In this document: positions 7,273 to 17,370 of the stretch, in pieces
Layout: every line of letters begins with the position of its first letter
Position numbering within the stretch: position 1 is the stretch's first letter
DNA from: Spirochaetales bacterium
GTDB lineage: Bacteria; Spirochaetota; Spirochaetia; DSM-27196; PWMO01
Assembly: GCA_007123465.1 (NCBI GenBank)
Contig: SKLB01000329.1
Coordinates: 1 to 36,459 of the forward strand
Reading direction: 5' to 3'
Length of the DNA: 36,459 bases
The notes under the pieces: generated by a model
Databases searched by the model: none
What the model saw: the letters and a program-made list of their open reading frames with translations, nothing else
What the model was told of the DNA's origin: nothing
Program-made: the position numbers and the translations under genes

Positions 7273-7434
7273 ATGCAGAAGTACGTATGCGACGTGTGCG
7301 GCTACATCTACGATCCCGAAGAGGGTGATCCGGATAACGGTATCGAAGCCGGTACCAGCTTTGAAGCGCTTCCCGAGGACTGGGTATGTCCGATGTGCGG
7401 TGCGGGGAAAGAAGACTTCTCGCTCGAGGACTGA
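7273..7434 (+). CDS. Rubredoxin
   Basis: [12 protein letters not shown]...WVCPMCG; AAGGAG SD upstream of ATG 7273; 53 aa. Confidence 0.97.
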
Positions 7435-9822: not shown

Positions 9823-11910
9823 TTATTGCGCTGCAAACAATGCGATCTGTTCCAGCGGGGCCGGGCGGGCGATCTCGTAGCCTTGAACATAATCCACGCC
9901 GATCTCGGCCAGCTGCTGTCTGACCGAATTAGAGGTCACAAATTCGGCAATTGTCTTCATACCCATGACGTGCCCGATGTTGTTGATTGCCTCCACCATC
10001 GCGAGGCTTATGGGGTCGGTATCAACGTCGCGTACAAAGGAACCATCGATCTTGAGATAGTCTACCGGCAGGTTCTTCAGGTAGGCAAACGATGTAAACC
10101 CGTTGCCAAAGTCATCGAGGGCAAACGAGACACCAATCTTGCGCAGACGGTTCATGAAGCCGACCGCGCGCGAAAGACTCTCGATGGCGGTGGTCTCGGT
10201 AACCTCAAAGCAGAACAGAGCGGGATCGACATCGGCGTCGCGGAATGCTCGCGTCACAAAATCCAGAAACGCTTCGTCTTTGACCGACGCGCCCGATATG
10301 TTGATGGCCAGCAGTGCCGAGTCGTGTTGCAGCGGCAGCGGACCCGCGGAGCGCAGATGGCGCAGCACGGAGTTGATCACCCAACGGTCAACAGACGGCA
10401 TCAGGTTGTAGCGCTCGGCAGCCGGTATGAAATCACCCGGGCTCACCATCGAGCCGTCGTCATCGATCAGGCGGATCAGGATCTCCTGTTTCAGTCCCAG
10501 GTTGCTCGCCAGCGGATGGATCGGCTGGGCGTAGAGCACAAAGCGGTCTTCTTCCAGTGCGCGGGTCAGACGGCTGATCCACTGCATTTCGCCGCGGCGC
10601 TTGAGAAACGTGTAATCGGCGGTTTCGTAGACCTTGACTGCGTTGCCGCCCTCTTCTTTGGCCAGGTAGCAGGCGTCGTCAGCGGCAGCAAGTACGGTAT
10701 AGATATCACTGTTGTGCGATGAAACCGGCACAACACCGATACTGGCGGTGATCTGGAACGTATTGTGCTGCCAGATGAACTTACGGTTGAGCACCTCACG
10801 CAGCTGGTAGGCAATCTGTTGTGCCTGTTGCAGGTCGGTGTCAACCAGCACCACTCCGTACTCATCACCGCCGAGGCGCCCTATGTAGTGGTCGCGGTGC
10901 ACGTTCTCCAGCAGAGCCCCCCCAATCTGGCGCAAAAGCTCGTCCCCGGCCAGGTGCCCACAGACGTCGTTGACCACCTTGAACTGATCCAGGTCAACGT
11001 AAATGAACACGTGATGGCGACCATCGTCGCGGCTGGTGCGGATTGTCTCTTCCAGGTGAGCAAAAAACTCGTCGCGATTGATAAGGCCGGTCAGAATATC
11101 GTGGCTCGCCTGATAGACAATGATGTCGGACATCTTCTTCAGATCGGTGACATCACGGAAAGCTATCGTACGGCCGTCAAAGTGATGCCGCGGGTGATTT
11201 CCGGGGCCGCGGATTGACGCGATAGTGCCGTCTACCTGGATACGCGCGCCCTGCTTGTTGTGCAGGTAGGCATCATCAAGGAAGACGGCGTTGTCGCTGT
11301 CATGGCTGCCGGTCGAAGAGGGCAGCTGAATCCGCAGTCCCGAATGCAGGTCAAAAATTTGAAAGATGTCGGCCAGCGCCAGGCCCTTGGCGTCCTTCTC
11401 GGTCCAGCCGGTGAGGCTTTCAGCAACTGGATTCATGAACTGGATGGTATCTTCACTGTCGCTGGCGATGATGGCGTCGGCAACGCTATTCAGGATCGAG
11501 GAGAGCCAACGCTCGTGGCGCCGAACTTCCATGTGCAGACGGCTCTTGTGCAGCGCCATGTCGATTGTGGTGTAGAGCTCGCGCTCCTTAAACGGCTTGA
11601 GCAAATAACCGAAGGGCTCAGCGGCTTTGGCGCGTTCGAGGGTGCGTTCATCGGCGTAGGCGGTCAGGAAAATCACCGGTATCCCCGACGAGTCGCGAAT
11701 AGTCTGGGCTGCGTCTATGCCATCCCCGTCTCCGGACAGCATGATATCCATCAGGATGATGTCGGGGTGCAATTCACCGGCGCGCTCGATGGCTTCAGCC
11801 GCGGTCAACGCAATAGCCGCCACGCGATAGCCGTAGTTCTCGAGCCGTCGCTGCAGGTCGATGGCGATTATGCGCTCATCCTCGACAATCAGTATCCGTT
11901 CGCCGCTCAT
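9823..11910 (-). CDS. Response-regulated diguanylate cyclase/phosphodiesterase (REC-PAS-GGDEF-EAL)
   Basis: REC (ILIVEDE, ILMDI, KPF); PAS (MNPVAESLTGW); GGDEF domain (DLDQFKVVND, GRLGGDEY); EAL domain (EILIRL, FEVTE, ALDDFG, KIDGSF, VQGY). Confidence 0.95.
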   Translation of the reverse strand: MSGERILIVEDERIIAIDLQRRLENYGYRVAAIALTAAEAIERAGELHPDIILMDIMLSGDGDGIDAAQTIRDSSGIPVIFLTAYADERTLERAKAAEPFGYLLKPFKERELYTTIDMALHKSRLHMEVRRHERWLSSILNSVADAIIASDSEDTIQFMNPVAESLTGWTEKDAKGLALADIFQIFDLHSGLRIQLPSSTGSHDSDNAVFLDDAYLHNKQGARIQVDGTIASIRGPGNHPRHHFDGRTIAFRDVTDLKKMSDIIVYQASHDILTGLINRDEFFAHLEETIRTSRDDGRHHVFIYVDLDQFKVVNDVCGHLAGDELLRQIGGALLENVHRDHYIGRLGGDEYGVVLVDTDLQQAQQIAYQLREVLNRKFIWQHNTFQITASIGVVPVSSHNSDIYTVLAAADDACYLAKEEGGNAVKVYETADYTFLKRRGEMQWISRLTRALEEDRFVLYAQPIHPLASNLGLKQEILIRLIDDDGSMVSPGDFIPAAERYNLMPSVDRWVINSVLRHLRSAGPLPLQHDSALLAINISGASVKDEAFLDFVTRAFRDADVDPALFCFEVTETTAIESLSRAVGFMNRLRKIGVSFALDDFGNGFTSFAYLKNLPVDYLKIDGSFVRDVDTDPISLAMVEAINNIGHVMGMKTIAEFVTSNSVRQQLAEIGVDYVQGYEIARPAPLEQIALFAAQ

Positions 11911-11979: not shown

Positions 11980-12444
11980 CTACAGTTTGAGAACTCTCTT
12001 CAATTGTAGCGGCTCGATGCGAAACGGTGCTCCCTTACCCTGCATGAAGTGGTACTTCTCGAACAGGTGCAGGCCGAGCTCGGAGTAGAGAATCTTCTCG
12101 CCGCTGGGCTCTGCGCCGGAAGTCAGCTGCACCTCGGCGTTGACTTTGCGGAATATCCCGTCTTCGAACGGGGACGGCAGAAAGCCGCGCGCCTCGCTGA
12201 CACGTACAATCCACTGGTTGTCCACGGTGACAGGTTCCTCCAACCCCTTGCGGCCCTCGGCCATCAGGTGCCGCATGCGCGCTGCCGCCTGTTCAAAACC
12301 AACACCAATGGCCTCCATTTCGGCTTCATCGTCGGCAATGATGTCAACGATCGGGCGCGTATCGTCGCCGAGGAACCCGTCCGCGGTGATCTCGCCGGGC
12401 TGCATATTGGCCTGCGCTTTGGTGAATTCCGGGGACATCTTCAT
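11980..12444 (-). CDS. Soluble hypothetical protein, last gene of the nqr-like operon
   Basis: ATG 12444 with GAGG SD, 13 nt after the nqrF-like stop; 154 aa; no family motif I can name. Confidence 0.75.
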   Translation of the reverse strand: MKMSPEFTKAQANMQPGEITADGFLGDDTRPIVDIIADDEAEMEAIGVGFEQAAARMRHLMAEGRKGLEEPVTVDNQWIVRVSEARGFLPSPFEDGIFRKVNAEVQLTSGAEPSGEKILYSELGLHLFEKYHFMQGKGAPFRIEPLQLKRVLKL

Positions 12445-12457
12445 AACGGCACCTCGT

Positions 12458-13582
12458 TTAGGCAAACTTGTCGAAATAGATCTTATCGTCACTCATATCG
12501 TTTGAGCGCATTACATCCATACACGCATCCAACATACCCGGACTGCCGCACAGGTAGCCCTCTTTTGGTGCGTCGGCGGAAATCTTGCTCTTGAGGTACT
12601 TGTCCAGCACATCGGTGATCAGACCAGTTTCTCCTTGCCAATCGTCCTCGGGTTGGGGCTCGGAAAGTGCTGCTACAAAGTGAAAGCGTTCGTGTTCGTC
12701 CTGAAATTTCTGCATTTCTTCCAGGTAGAACAGGTCCTTCTTGGTACGCGCGCCAAAGAAATACCAGATATCACGCTCTTCCATCTTGTCCTTCTCGACA
12801 AAGTCGTAGAAGATCGACTTGAACGGCGCCATGCCCGATCCGCCGGCCACACAGATCATTGTAGCATCGGTGTCGCGAACGTAGAACTCGCCGAACGGCG
12901 CGATGATCTTCATCTTCTCGCCCTCTTTGAGGTGCTCGTGGACGTAGGTGGTAACGATGCCGCCGGGTACCAGACGGACCAGAAATTCAACATGGTTGTT
13001 GTCACTGGGTTTGGATGACATGGAGTAGGCGCGCTGCGTGCGTTCTTTGACCTTGGCGTACGGCGGAGTCTCAATCTGGCCGTACTGGCCGGCACGGAAG
13101 TCCACCGTCTGTCCCTCATCGAGCTTGAAGTAAACTTCCTTGATATCATGGGTGACATCGCGGATTCTCTCGACGGTTCCGGTGTACTGCTTGATCTTGA
13201 ACAGGTATTCGGGGATCTGGATATCAACGTCGCCCTTGATCTTCACCTGGCACGAGAGGCGTACGTTGTCATCAATCTGTTCTCTGGTGAGGTAGGGAAT
13301 TTCGGTCGGCAGATGCGGACCAATGTCGGACTCTACCTTGACCTTGCATTCACCGCAGCTGCCGCGGCCGCCGCACGCCGAGGGAATGAAGATCTGGTTC
13401 TCCGCCAGGGTTACCAGCATGTTGGCGCCGCCGGTAACGTCCAGTTTCTTGGAGCCGTCATTGACGTTGATCACGGCTTCGCCGTAGTTGTTGACAATCT
13501 TGTCGGTGACCGAGACCAGCGCGGCGAACGCTGCACTGAGGCTTGCAATTGCCATTGGGGCGATCAGAAACGCTAAGTCCAA
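12458..13582 (-). CDS. nqrF: NqrF-like membrane-anchored 2Fe-2S / FAD / NAD(H) oxidoreductase
   Basis: N-terminal TM, SACGGRGSCGECK...RLSCQV, RAYSMSS, AGGSGMAPF and YLCGSPGM; TTG start after AAAGGAG. Confidence 0.85.
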   Translation of the reverse strand: MDLAFLIAPMAIASLSAAFAALVSVTDKIVNNYGEAVINVNDGSKKLDVTGGANMLVTLAENQIFIPSACGGRGSCGECKVKVESDIGPHLPTEIPYLTREQIDDNVRLSCQVKIKGDVDIQIPEYLFKIKQYTGTVERIRDVTHDIKEVYFKLDEGQTVDFRAGQYGQIETPPYAKVKERTQRAYSMSSKPSDNNHVEFLVRLVPGGIVTTYVHEHLKEGEKMKIIAPFGEFYVRDTDATMICVAGGSGMAPFKSIFYDFVEKDKMEERDIWYFFGARTKKDLFYLEEMQKFQDEHERFHFVAALSEPQPEDDWQGETGLITDVLDKYLKSKISADAPKEGYLCGSPGMLDACMDVMRSNDMSDDKIYFDKFA

Positions 13583-13609
13583 TGTATTACTCCTTTCCTG
13601 TACGTCTGC

Positions 13610-14203
13610 TTATTGGACCTGAAGCAGGCCGGTGAAGCCGATAAACGCCATTGCCATAAACCCGATGGTGATAAAGGTCAGCCCGGCGCCCTGCAGACCG
13701 GCGGACACCTTGGACTTCTCGGTCTTCTTGCGGATAGCCGCCAGAGCCATGATCGCCAGCCACCACCCGAGCCCGGAACCCAAGCCGAAGACGGCAGACT
13801 GCAGGAAGCTGTACTGCCGGATCTCCATGAACAGTGAAACACCGAGAATGGCGCAGTTGACGGTGATCAACGGCAGGAAGATTCCCAGGTTCAGATAGAG
13901 GGTCTGCGAAACGCGGTCGATGATCATCTCCAGCATCTGCACCACCGAGGCGATCACGATGATAAAAATGATGAATCGCAGATAGACCAGATCCAGTGGA
14001 ATCAGAACGTAGTTCAGTACAACCCAGTTGATCGACGCCGTGAAGGTGAGTACCACCACCACTGCCATGCCGAGTCCGTTGGAAGAATTGATATCTTTGG
14101 AAATCGCAATAAAGGAACACATCCCCAGAAAGTTAGCCAGCAGGATGTTACTGGTGAAGATCGACGCAAAAAAGAGCGAAAACATCGGGATATCGGGTGC
14201 CAT
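13610..14203 (-). CDS. nqrE: NqrE/RnfA family membrane subunit
   Basis: FLGMCSFIAIS and LGIFLPLITVNCAILG, with both Cys ligands present. Confidence 0.9.
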   Translation of the reverse strand: MAPDIPMFSLFFASIFTSNILLANFLGMCSFIAISKDINSSNGLGMAVVVVLTFTASINWVVLNYVLIPLDLVYLRFIIFIIVIASVVQMLEMIIDRVSQTLYLNLGIFLPLITVNCAILGVSLFMEIRQYSFLQSAVFGLGSGLGWWLAIMALAAIRKKTEKSKVSAGLQGAGLTFITIGFMAMAFIGFTGLLQVQ

Positions 14204-14206
14204 ATC

Positions 14207-14836
14207 TTACTCTCCTTCCAGGACGGGCTCGCCTTGACGATGCATCAGGTACTTGCCGCCCCAGGTGATGACACCGATCAGGAAGAACGCGCTCGGGGGC
14301 ATCACCATGATGATCCAGGGCTCAAATCCTGCCGGCAGGACCTGGAAGCCGAACAGCGCGCCAAAGCCGAGCAGTTCGCGTACGAGCGCGATTGACAGCA
14401 GCACTCCCATGTATCCCATGCCCGAAGTGATACCGTCCCACAGTGACAGCAGCGGCGGATTACTCTGGGCAAACGCCTCGGCGCGGCCCATGATGATGCA
14501 GTTGGTGATGATCAGTCCAACGTAGGGACCGAGGTTGCGGCTGATCTCGGGCAGATAGGCGCGCAACACGATGTCAACAATAATCACGTAGAACGCGATG
14601 ATCAGAGTTTGCACCACCATGCGCACCTTACGCGGGATCAGGCTCTTGATTATGGCAACGGTGAGATTGGACATCCCGGTTACAAAAACAACCCCGAGCG
14701 TCATGATCATGGTGTTGGAGAGCAGATTGGTGACTGCAAGCGCCGAGCAGATACCGAGAATCTGCATGAAGATCGGATTTGCGGTCCACATGTTCTGCTT
14801 GAGAATCTGTCCGGGTTGTTTTGCGCTATCGCTCAT
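14207..14836 (-). CDS. nqrD: NqrD/RnfE family membrane subunit
   Basis: NPIFMQILGICSALAVT and YVGLIITNCIIMGRAEAFA. Confidence 0.9.
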   Translation of the reverse strand: MSDSAKQPGQILKQNMWTANPIFMQILGICSALAVTNLLSNTMIMTLGVVFVTGMSNLTVAIIKSLIPRKVRMVVQTLIIAFYVIIVDIVLRAYLPEISRNLGPYVGLIITNCIIMGRAEAFAQSNPPLLSLWDGITSGMGYMGVLLSIALVRELLGFGALFGFQVLPAGFEPWIIMVMPPSAFFLIGVITWGGKYLMHRQGEPVLEGE

Positions 14837-15432
14837 GCCTCACCTCTCAGCGCGTCTCGCAGACGTTCAAACTCACGGTTCAGAATTGTCTCTATGGCAT
14901 TGGATGTACCGGTTGCCCCGGTAATTGCGTTGATGCGGCCGTCGACCCCTTCGGTGTCTCCCTCACGGATGACATCGATCTTTCCGTCGTCAAGCGGTTT
15001 GTCACGGAACTGCCGCTTGAACTCCGGCTCATCCACGCGGCCTCCCAGTCCCGGAGTTTCGTTGTGATCGATGATTTCCAGTGCGACGGTACGGCTTACG
15101 TCCTCGTTTACGCCTACCACGCCGTTGATGGTGCCCCATAAACCGCTGCCGGCAAAAATTCTGGCGTAGAGCACCTCGTCGTCTCGGTCTATGCGGTAGA
15201 GCGTCATGCCGTTGCGCTCAACGGTTTCGATGTCATCGAACAGTTGCAGCACTTCCTGGTCGTCCTGGTAGTCAATGGCCAGCGCACTCAGTACCGACCG
15301 TTGCAGGCGCAACTGCTGGTTAAGCTGTACCTGTTCGCGGGTAGCCTGATGGGTCAGCGAGAGCAGGAAGACAAACGCAAAACAGACGATGAAAGAAAAA
15401 ACAACGGTATAGGGCAGACTCTGTTTGTTCAC
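14833..15432 (-). CDS. nqrC: NqrC/RnfG family FMN-binding subunit
   Basis: N-terminal TM, GSGLWG (NqrC-type), ETPGLG and ITGATGTS flavinylation motif. Confidence 0.88.
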   Translation of the reverse strand: MNKQSLPYTVVFSFIVCFAFVFLLSLTHQATREQVQLNQQLRLQRSVLSALAIDYQDDQEVLQLFDDIETVERNGMTLYRIDRDDEVLYARIFAGSGLWGTINGVVGVNEDVSRTVALEIIDHNETPGLGGRVDEPEFKRQFRDKPLDDGKIDVIREGDTEGVDGRINAITGATGTSNAIETILNREFERLRDALRGEA

Positions 15433-16403
15433 GCCGTTCCCCCCTTGGCGCCGGGTTGTTTCCCGGCCGGTGCATTCGGGTTGGCACTCTTTTTCTTGGT
15501 GGGCTTGGGGATTATCTCGTCCAGCAGCGAGGCAAAGACGTTACCCATCAGGATACCGAAGCTGGTGCCTTCGGGAAATTGGCCGAGGTTGCGGATGGTA
15601 ATGCTGATTGTGCCGATCAGCAGGCCGTAGACCCACTGGGCGCGCGGGTTGTTGGGCGCGCTGACCGGATCGGTGGACATGAAGACTGCCACAAACAGAA
15701 TGCTCCCCGAGAGCATGCCGTATTCTGGCGGATAGTTGGGCGTCAAGCCGCTGTAGTAGAACGCGATCATCAGAGCTCCGGCGCCCAGCAGGGTAGAGAC
15801 AATCAGACGCCACTGCGCGGTCTTGGTAGCCACCAGATATATTCCGGCCAGGATAATCAGCACCGCCGAGGTTTCACCCATCGAGCCGCCGGTGAAACCC
15901 AGCAGTATGTCGAGCAACTCCGGCCTGCTGCCGTTGGCCAGCATCGCCAGCGGGCTTGCCGCCGACAGCGCGTCTACGCCGGCCTCGCCGGCAGTACCAA
16001 ACGCTCCGGGAACCATGAATCCGTAGGCAAAAAGCGACGGGAAGCTGATCCATACAAAGATTCTGCCCGATATCGCGGGGTTGAAGATGTTGCGGCCAAA
16101 ACCGCCATAGACCTCTTTGCCGAAGAAAACACCAAAGACGATCCCGATTGCGGCTATCCACAGCGGAATTGCCGGCGGGACAATCAGAACAAAGAGCATA
16201 CAGGTAACCAGCACCGCTTCGCTGACCTTCTTGCCGCGCGATTTTTCCATCACATACTCGGTGAGTATGCCCAGGGTAAAAACCACCGCCGACAGGGCAA
16301 TCACTCTCCATCCGTACCTATAGAGGGAGAACAGATAAATCGGGATCAGCGAATAGACCACTCTGCGCATGATCGGCTGTTTAATAAACACGTCTTTTAA
16401 CAC
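15429..16403 (-). CDS. nqrB: NqrB/RnfD family membrane subunit (short form)
   Basis: KEVYGGFGRNIFNPA, GSMGETS, FMSTDPVSAP and FPEG; GTG start after GAGGGAGG. Confidence 0.88.
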   Translation of the reverse strand: MLKDVFIKQPIMRRVVYSLIPIYLFSLYRYGWRVIALSAVVFTLGILTEYVMEKSRGKKVSEAVLVTCMLFVLIVPPAIPLWIAAIGIVFGVFFGKEVYGGFGRNIFNPAISGRIFVWISFPSLFAYGFMVPGAFGTAGEAGVDALSAASPLAMLANGSRPELLDILLGFTGGSMGETSAVLIILAGIYLVATKTAQWRLIVSTLLGAGALMIAFYYSGLTPNYPPEYGMLSGSILFVAVFMSTDPVSAPNNPRAQWVYGLLIGTISITIRNLGQFPEGTSFGILMGNVFASLLDEIIPKPTKKKSANPNAPAGKQPGAKGGTA

Positions 16404-16423
16404 GGCGCCTCCCTCAAGACGAC

Positions 16424-16530
16424 TAAGTTTTATCTATATATAGTTACTTTATTATCCTATGCGGCATTATACTAAGTTGGCGTTCAAAAGTACAGTCTAA
16501 ACAGCGGTATCCGCGATTAATTCTTATAAT
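16424..16530. promoter_or_regulatory. AT-rich divergent control region between the nqr-like operon and the SDR gene
   Basis: Sharp drop in GC. Perfect TATAAT on the minus strand (16466-16471) and on the plus strand (16525-16530); palindrome CTATATATAG at 16434-16443. Confidence 0.55.
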
Positions 16531-16635
16531 AGAGGTCAGCTTTGCGCGCCCCGCGGGCGCTCCGCGCAACCTGACTGCCGGCGGCTTGAAAAATGGCGCC
16601 GAATCGGTACAGTAGAGCGCAGGAGTACAGCAGAT

Positions 16636-17370
16636 ATGATGCGGCGTACGATGCAGGGACGAGTGGTATTGGTCAGCGGCGCCAGCGGAGGAATCGGAGC
16701 TGCGATAGCTGCGGCGTTTGCCGCCAGAGGCGCATCGCTGATGCTCACCGGACGCTCACAGGAGCGCCTGGACGAGGTTGCAGAAGACCTGCGCCAGCGT
16801 TTTGCCTTGATGGTCAACACCGTGCGTGCCGATCTTGCCGACCCCGCTGCGCCGGCGCGGGTCATCGATGCGCTGCGTGCCGCGTACAACCGGCTCGACG
16901 TTCTGGTCAACAACGCCGGGGTGGCGTTGCCAGGGCCGTTGTGCCGGACCAGCGTCGAGCAGTGGGATCTTCATATGGCGGTCAACGCCCGCGCGCCGAT
17001 GCTGCTCAGCTCGCAGGCACTCGAGCTGCTGCAACACTCTGATGACGCTGTCATCGTCAATATCGGCTCGGTTGTGGCCCACAAGGGCTACGCAGGCCAG
17101 GGCGCCTACAGCGCTTCAAAACACGCGCTGCTCGGCCTGACCCGGGTGCTGGCCAAAGAGCTGCAGCAGCTCGGCGTGCGCGTCCACCTGGTCTCTCCTG
17201 GCGGCGTTGCGACCCCGATGATCAGCGAGATGCGCCCGGATATCGATGTTTCAGAACTCATGCAACCCGAAGACGTTGCCGAGGCGGTTGTATTTGTGGC
17301 GCTGGCGCGCGGTAACGCACTCGTAGACGAGATCGAACTGCGACGCCGCTCCAGTGAGCCGTGGAAATAA
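16636..17370 (+). CDS. Short-chain dehydrogenase/reductase (SDR)
   Basis: SGASGGIG, NNAG and YSASK; AGGAG upstream. Confidence 0.93.
   Translation: MMRRTMQGRVVLVSGASGGIGAAIAAAFAARGASLMLTGRSQERLDEVAEDLRQRFALMVNTVRADLADPAAPARVIDALRAAYNRLDVLVNNAGVALPGPLCRTSVEQWDLHMAVNARAPMLLSSQALELLQHSDDAVIVNIGSVVAHKGYAGQGAYSASKHALLGLTRVLAKELQQLGVRVHLVSPGGVATPMISEMRPDIDVSELMQPEDVAEAVVFVALARGNALVDEIELRRRSSEPWK

Follow-up and report, generated by a model that had tools for sequence, protein, structure and literature searches.

Known relatives of the complex reported here are the Na+-NQR of Vibrio cholerae (NqrABCDEF), the RNF complex (RnfCDGEAB) and sets of nqrBCDEF genes from which nqrA is missing. Such sets were reported in 2014 for Thermotoga (Pseudothermotoga) thermarum and lettingae, for which another acceptor was argued (PMC4148951), and in 2018 for Clostridium ultunense, for which the available portion of the paper suggests an acceptor more negative than quinone (PMC5924567). 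The A-less architecture is thus not new, and the question of what an NqrA-less NQR complex reduces has been in print since 2014; in the literature searched, we did not find this architecture described for spirochaetes. The stretch of DNA analyzed here (hereafter the window) comprises the 36,459 nucleotides of contig SKLB01000329.1 from a Spirochaetales bacterium (assembly GCA_007123465.1). It is one of 375 contigs (C43 in our numbering) of a metagenome-assembled genome that is 75.6% complete, and DNA near-identical to it was found in soda-lake, salt-lake, alkaline-sediment and microbialite metagenomes. On its minus strand the window carries six tightly packed genes in the order nqrB-C-D-E-F-X, the last of which belongs to a family that we did not find described in the literature. 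We conclude with high confidence that the encoded complex belongs to the NQR lineage as a derived form without NqrA, that its wire from NADH to riboflavin is intact and that it has a constant candidate for a sixth subunit. We further propose, tentatively and at slightly less than an even chance, that it may be a Na+-pumping NADH:rubredoxin oxidoreductase in which X would serve as an adaptor and which would feed the reduction of O2 or peroxide.

The nqrB-like gene (15429-16403, minus strand, as are all six) has a GTG start and encodes 324 amino acids (PF03116, E 1.5e-80). It is followed by an nqrC-like gene (14833-15432; 199 amino acids, with one N-terminal transmembrane (TM) helix; FMN_bind, E 4.2e-14), nqrD (14207-14836; 209 amino acids; Rnf-Nqr, E 9.5e-56), nqrE (13610-14203; 197 amino acids; nqrE family match) and nqrF (12458-13582; 374 amino acids, with a TM helix and the Fer2, FAD_binding_6 and NAD_binding_1 domains). 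Gene X (11980-12444; 154 amino acids) lies in an open reading frame that extends over 11980-12492 and matches no Pfam or NCBIfam family; its likely start is the ATG at 12444, which lies 13 nt past the nqrF stop and has a GAGGTG Shine-Dalgarno sequence 6 nt upstream. D and F scored above their NCBIfam equivalog cut-offs (242.7 vs 235 bits, and 296.7 vs 295 bits for TIGR01941), E fell narrowly below its own (227.6 vs 247.55 bits), and B (224 vs 414) and C (76.5 vs 144) fell far below theirs. The window shares with the Thermotoga and C. ultunense sets the same five genes, their order and a genome without nqrA, but it differs from them in having X, which they lack; by its gene order, the lack of nqrA and its common descent with C. 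ultunense, the complex fits the NqrA-less NqrBCDEF group. Compared with V. cholerae Na+-NQR, the B to F subunits are homologous and their genes are in the same order, whereas NqrA is missing, X is added, NqrF lacks a 26-residue insert (V. cholerae residues 176-201), and neither apbE nor nqrM lies inside the operon. ApbE, which an earlier note on this DNA had proposed to look for across the genome, is encoded elsewhere in it, on contig C74.

The same note had read the operon as beginning at nqrB, next to a divergent SDR gene, with no nqrA or rnfC at its head and no rnfB, and both the open reading frames and the family matches bear this out: none of the three is encoded at the nqrBCDEF-X locus. 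An unlinked nqrA, which the note had also considered, was not found either. The NqrA family TIGR01936 gave no match at E <= 0.001 in the 75.6% complete genome of the window, and in none of 41 genomes from the order, the closed genomes G026, G028 and G036 among them, did a match exceed the cut-off; the weak matches to this family in the order's genomes are RnfC genes. An nqrF orthologue is present in 39 of these 41 genomes, with 62-96% identity for the full-length matches. In four closed genomes (G026, G028, G036 and G075) the gene order is B-C-D-E-F-X, and the 6 kb ahead of B contain neither an A-like nor an RnfC-like gene. A single exception was seen in the same genus, where a 3-kb contig (G003:C313, locus L019) carries an NqrA-like gene (175 bits) with 4Fe-4S motifs; it is 52% identical to a gene of Planctomycetota and may represent either a second operon (cf. 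G030 and G038) or contamination of the bin.

Since three rnfC genes are present in the window's own genome, one could imagine that the missing exit is provided in trans, by an RnfC from another locus binding to this NqrB. We consider this very improbable. The earlier note had raised the idea of a spare rnfC; each of the three rnfC genes adjoins its own rnfD. In closed G026, moreover, B-C-D-E-F-X coexists with a single rnfC that lies within the rnf operon, and a spare RnfC is therefore not a general feature of the carriers; and with NADH entering at NqrF, an exit to NAD+ via RnfC would amount to a futile loop. In the window's own genome, contig C217 carries a canonical rnfCDGEA locus that reaches the contig end. 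On contig C220 (locus L111, 5193-8362), rnfC is followed by a gene for a 619-amino-acid RnfD-RnfG fusion with two FMN_bind domains, with no rnfA, rnfE or rnfB nearby, an arrangement that resembles a half-RNF module.

A wider comparison was made by scanning species-representative genomes with NqrB, which yielded 80 loci that were annotated by BLAST. Eighteen of the 80 are A-less, 11 of them from Spirochaetota and 7 from Tissierellia (including C. ultunense), while 61 of the other 62 have an RnfC/NqrA-like gene before B and one begins inside B. X is found in the 11 A-less Spirochaetota loci wherever the contig extends that far. Trees of concatenated B, D and E, rooted on RNF operons, were built from 57 rows under LG+G4 and from 35 rows in a quick search with the PMSF mixture model; Thermotogae operons, known to us from papers, are absent from this tree and locus data set. 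In both trees all NqrF-linked complexes form one clade (100), apart from RNF. Within it, clade I (SH-aLRT 97 in the 57-row LG+G4 tree and 95 in the 35-row PMSF tree) unites the canonical NQR of locus L120, whose NqrA scores 430 bits, with NqrA-like six-gene operons from Planctomycetota and two relatives and with the A-less clade. The latter, comprising Spirochaetota and Tissierellia, is monophyletic (100 in both trees), and in it the spirochaete operons have that of C. ultunense (L036) as their sister group (100%); the only NqrA-family match in the C. ultunense genome (G041) scores 51.6 bits and is of RnfC type. Operons with RnfC-like first subunits make up clade II (99), outside clade I.

Because the outgroup and clade II both carry an A or C subunit, the A-less form is a derived loss. 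The earlier note had called the complex an NQR/RNF intermediate, and this description has to be given up, since the A-less clade lies inside the NQR-type clade I and the RnfC-like operons lie outside it; such nesting beside canonical NQR comes close to the outcome that the note itself had named as speaking against its idea. The complex does share its membrane core and cofactors with RNF, but it differs in having neither RnfB nor RnfC, in using NqrF as its input module, and in that its B, D and E subunits group with the NQR type outside the RNF clade (100% in both trees). We favor an origin from a six-subunit NQR-type ancestor that lost its A subunit and the quinone-gating N-terminus of NqrB.

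The diversity of first subunits in these operons is itself considerable. In twelve aligned non-canonical six-gene operons, the A-like subunit keeps two CxxCxxCxxxC motifs, as RnfC does and unlike canonical NqrA. A wide family of six-gene operons in other phyla and other spirochaetes (L042-L104) begins with an RnfC-like or NqrA-like subunit bearing two 4Fe-4S motifs, continues with B-C-D-E and ends in an F subunit that is either a complete NqrF or a short form of ~150 amino acids (a TM helix and a 2Fe-2S domain only), the short form often being followed by a ~600-amino-acid protein with weak RnfC-like similarity. The NqrF-bearing complexes of anaerobes are thus very modular, the first subunit being RnfC-like, NqrA-like or absent, and F full-length or truncated.

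The loss of A coincides with the shortest NqrB proteins. The earlier note had remarked on the small size of the 324-residue NqrB, and rightly so: NqrB measures 310-325 amino acids in the A-less clade, compared to 398 in canonical L120, 358-388 in the NqrA-like operons and about 340-367 in clade II, whereas the RnfD proteins of RNF have 333-344. The window protein, which is of RnfD size, spans the whole RnfD profile (11-320 of 327) but the NqrB profile only over 122-395. Its alignment to V. cholerae NqrB does not begin until residue 131; it is about 75-90 amino acids shorter than that protein at its N-terminal end, where the amphiphilic helices AH-I and AH-II of the quinone site are missing.

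Cofactor sites were checked by alignment to the solved V. cholerae chains, and all of the residues checked are conserved, so that the earlier note's view of an intact F-D/E-C-B wire holds for all five subunits. In NqrF, the four 2Fe-2S cysteines and the RAYS motif align to the V. cholerae protein and are joined to an FNR-like FAD/NADH domain. The cluster cysteines are kept in both NqrD (C29 and C112, V. cholerae numbering) and NqrE (C26 and C120). The flavinylation motif of NqrC, TGAT, aligns to SGAT of V. cholerae (T225), while that of NqrB, DALSAAS, has Ser at the acceptor position, where Ser or Thr is found across the clade; ApbE accepts Ser as a flavinylation residue. The riboflavin-binding residue of NqrB is Asp245, and this Asp and a TDP motif are conserved across the clade. 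Equivalents of NqrB D397, NqrD D133 and NqrE E95, which we take to have a role in Na+ transport, are all present.

These residues also bear on the possibility that the complex works as a one-way exporter, in which electrons from NADH would exit from the FMN of NqrC or NqrB that faces outward, bound for flavinylated proteins of the periplasm or for acceptors outside the cell, while the way back through NqrB would go unused. Partial NQR/RNF-like systems for such export have been proposed, according to the available part of one study (PMC8238504), and the window's own genome encodes both ApbE and a 128-amino-acid FMN_bind protein on contig C372. However, the conservation of the riboflavin-binding Asp and of the TDP motif across the clade argues for a return path that is in use, the constant partner X is predicted to be cytoplasmic, and small FMN_bind proteins are not conserved across the carriers, G028 and G075 having only weak ones; we consider export to be doubtful at best. 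The small FMN_bind protein (C372, 2777-2995) occurs in two copies in G002 and could be a periplasmic flavinylated carrier.

In current structures, ubiquinone sits at the rim of NqrB in a site that is closed by the N-terminal helices AH-I and AH-II (PMC10643135), and in the available text of a 2025 review NqrA has no cofactor and no assigned direct function (PMC12174285). The earlier note had held that NqrA and the N-terminal region of NqrB together shape the ubiquinone site; the part concerning the N-terminus of NqrB agrees with the first source, whereas the role given to NqrA is dated by the second. Both sources lend some weight to the idea that an A-less complex could still be a quinone reductase, whose remodelled NqrB site would accept an unconventional membrane carrier, for example a polyketide-derived alkylquinone or a menaquinone built from salvaged precursors, with X as an accessory. 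The window's own genome gives this idea further substance, as it encodes two MenA-like UbiA prenyltransferases (both under their cut-offs), one of them beside a Pyr_redox_2 flavoprotein and a YceI-like protein, and a UbiE/COQ5-type methyltransferase over its cut-off that adjoins a type III polyketide synthase (PKS); type III PKS genes are present in 22 of the 41 relatives, including all six genomes of the genus. Polyketide quinones are described as respiratory carriers in actinobacteria in the part of the literature available to us, as original work on mycobacteria is also said to have shown. Because of these genes, an unconventional quinone in the window's genus stays a rival. Yet the closed carriers G026, G028 and G036 have B-C-D-E-F-X without a type III PKS, and no UbiE-type protein of G026, G028 or G075 scores above the cut-off. 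Neither a MenB above its cut-off nor MqnA/D nor cytochrome bd turned up when five genomes, closed ones included, were searched for each. Chemotaxonomy shows a cultured carrier to be without respiratory lipoquinones, which sets the window's relatives apart from V. cholerae, and the helices that form the high-affinity quinone site are missing. We consequently regard a quinone as an unlikely acceptor and quinone reduction of this kind as an improbable function of the complex.

The prenyltransferase gene on contig C188 (locus L110, 1280-4180) lies between those for the YceI-like protein and the Pyr_redox_2 flavoprotein. On contig C314 (locus L191, 1115-4964), an FAD_binding_3 monooxygenase, the UbiE/COQ5 methyltransferase, the type III PKS and a second methyltransferase are encoded together, in a cluster that resembles alkylresorcinol or polyketide-quinone clusters. 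A substitution in NqrB (Ile46 in the window, equivalent to G141) was at first taken as a marker of lost quinone binding and was dropped, since canonical L120 and L078 carry Leu at this position.

The product of X is a soluble, acidic protein (pI 5.0) without cysteine, signal peptide or TM helix. All of its 320 close homologues have ~154 amino acids and are annotated as 'hypothetical', and an exhaustive profile search extended the family to 1112 cluster representatives. X is present in 52 of 401 sampled Spirochaetota genomes, once per genome. It directly follows nqrF in 29 of 30 genome loci, the exception being a short contig of G104, and in 76 of 80 metagenome loci, the other four of which have <120 nt upstream of X. 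A remnant of NqrA or RnfC was ruled out as the source of X (hhalign probability 0.1%). The AF2 model has a pLDDT of 95.6, and it found no match in the PDB with Foldseek (best E 0.29) or among 48,161 chains with VIA-align (best Z 2.7), which does not prove that the modelled fold is new. Pfam searches with 33 homologues at E <= 1 gave four single hits at chance level only, and an atlas search returned unnamed clusters, in one of which DUF7919 was assigned to 13% of members; DUF7919 appeared once more, below the cut-off, on the X-family protein P0266.

An indication of what X might do comes from its relatives. Among the few long proteins of the X family, fusions were found to rubredoxin (P0191, with a C-terminal rubredoxin domain, E 9.6e-21, and with three members from three contigs in its 90% cluster), to a partial rubredoxin (P0194), to rubrerythrin (P0179), to nitroreductase (P0162) and, at the N-terminus of X, to peroxiredoxin (P0211). 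A word-index search for longer fusions had returned none; they were recovered by the exhaustive profile search. Gene order points in the same direction. In 14 of 50 spirochaete X loci a co-oriented rubredoxin gene lies 34-346 nt downstream of X, 13 loci continue with a rubrerythrin-like gene, and in L128 X is followed by a nitroreductase gene; no A-like gene was found within 1.5 kb upstream of B in the extended X-rubredoxin operons. In the window itself, a candidate acceptor is encoded at 7273-7434 on the plus strand (rubredoxin, 53 amino acids), convergent with the operon and 4.5 kb downstream of X. By comparison of coordinates by hand, 29 of the 39 NqrF-bearing genomes of the order have a rubredoxin gene on the contig that carries nqrF, 3-8.4 kb past it, and rubredoxin is present in all 41 relatives. 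A flavodiiron-type protein was found in 13 of 13 relatives searched, including the window's own genome (contig C356). Given these fusions and adjacencies to rubredoxin, the pump may deliver its electrons to enzymes that detoxify oxygen and not to a quinone.

X might alternatively be an assembly, stabilising or regulatory factor, with the riboflavin of NqrB passing its electrons to flavodoxin, a thiol system, free flavin or O2. X has no recognisable cofactor motif, the genes downstream of it vary widely (GGDEF-EAL, SpoIIE, ferritin, MBL-fold and others), and the Tissierellia operons consist of BCDEF without X, as do those of Thermotogae according to the literature, all of which would suit such a factor. 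We nevertheless think it unlikely, although it deserves to be taken seriously, since it leaves the repeated pairing of X with rubredoxin, rubrerythrin, peroxiredoxin and nitroreductase unexplained; X is, furthermore, unrelated to NqrA and RnfC and has no fold match.

In our proposal for an NADH:rubredoxin oxidoreductase, NqrF would oxidise NADH through its FAD and then its 2Fe-2S cluster, and electrons would pass through the NqrD/E cluster across the membrane to the covalent FMNs of NqrC and NqrB. They would then return to the riboflavin of NqrB near the cytoplasmic face, a transfer that we infer to be coupled to Na+ export as in NQR and RNF. There, rubredoxin, a soluble iron protein, would be reduced instead of quinone, with X as a cytoplasmic adaptor sitting on NqrB in the place of NqrA. 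Reduced rubredoxin would finally deliver its electrons to the flavodiiron protein in the window's own organism, or to rubrerythrin-like proteins in other spirochaetes, for the reduction of O2 or peroxide. Rubredoxin is known to pass electrons to rubrerythrin or to flavodiiron proteins that reduce peroxide or O2. The overall reaction, from NADH to rubredoxin to peroxide or O2, would be the same as that which begins with NADH:rubredoxin oxidoreductase (NROR) in clostridia and archaea. Whereas NROR consists of one soluble flavoprotein and lacks ion coupling, the reductase predicted here from sequence comparison would be a membrane pump of an unrelated family. A stronger form of the proposal, that NqrBCDEF-X constitutes a new class of respiratory enzyme in which an X of new fold docks rubredoxin onto NqrB and so replaces NqrA, seems to us possible but a shade less probable still. 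The earlier note had suggested a soluble, non-quinone terminal partner and Na+ coupling; the former is plausible, the genomic context of X now pointing to rubredoxin, and the latter is predicted by homology with NQR and RNF.

Physiological evidence from a cultured spirochaete is consistent with the rubredoxin proposal. Cultures of Salinispira pacifica reduce O2 without a terminal oxidase, and rubredoxins and a rubrerythrin are present, as the paper on this organism reports, with no recognisable NADH:rubredoxin oxidoreductase; its genome carries a homologue of X, and a cultured relative has the five-gene complex. How rubredoxin is reduced in aerotolerant spirochaetes without a known NADH:rubredoxin oxidoreductase is thus a second question beside that of the acceptor of NqrA-less complexes, and the genomic links of X join the two. 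In the literature searched we found nothing that connects the A-less NQR architecture to rubredoxin, and the Prevotella paper retrieved in this search concerns canonical NqrABCDEF. If the proposal is correct, it would couple the detoxification of O2 and peroxide in strict fermenters to a sodium-motive force, and a third type of exit module would be added to the NQR/RNF family. In its stronger form it would supply the missing rubredoxin reductase of these spirochaetes, and quinone-free and cytochrome-free 'fermentative' anaerobes would conserve energy while they reduce O2 or peroxide with flavodiiron and rubrerythrin enzymes that depend on rubredoxin.

Several observations weigh against rubredoxin as the acceptor. 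Having neither a cysteine nor a recognisable cofactor motif, X cannot relay electrons alone. In Tissierellia the A-less operons lack X, and their flanks of about 5-8 kb contain no rubredoxin gene, from which it follows that X is not needed for the five-subunit core. Of the five types of fusion, four are each represented by a single protein at 90% identity and might stem from read-through in gene calling. The adjacency of X and rubredoxin is confined to two families (f27 and f40) and may represent one or two events, since kin are not independent, and the proximity of rubredoxin at 3-8 kb within a single order may be inherited synteny. Rubrerythrin and superoxide reductase were each found in none of the six genomes of the window's genus. 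To these points must be added the MenA-like, UbiE-type and PKS genes of the window's own genome and the fact that the change at the G141-equivalent position is not diagnostic of lost quinone binding.

Upstream of the operon, an AT-rich spacer of 232 bp (16404-16635) separates nqrB from the divergent SDR gene (16636-17370, plus strand; adh_short, E 2.3e-51), with a TATAAT box and, as ribosome-binding site, a GGGAGG ahead of the nqrB GTG. A sigma-70 consensus scan called no minus-strand promoter in this spacer, and we therefore treat the nqrB promoter as putative. In the window's own order, no conserved genes were found upstream of B or downstream of X beyond inherited synteny. In the RNA library X17, contigs that are 90-100% similar match portions of B, C, E, F and X, none of them spanning F-X; they are a weak hint of expression, as carry-over of DNA is possible. 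In the window, a response regulator-PAS-GGDEF-EAL gene (9823-11910, minus strand) begins 69 nt past X, with no terminator called between the two, and among 60 metagenome loci a gene of this family comes after X in 11. A ferritin gene is the direct neighbour downstream of X in 5 of the 60 and a gene for an MBL-fold protein in others (loci with one or the other include L225, 2670-3185; L232, 7485-8174; and L288, 2247-2966); the MBL-fold proteins of L288 and L289 give sub-threshold matches to the ODP di-iron family.

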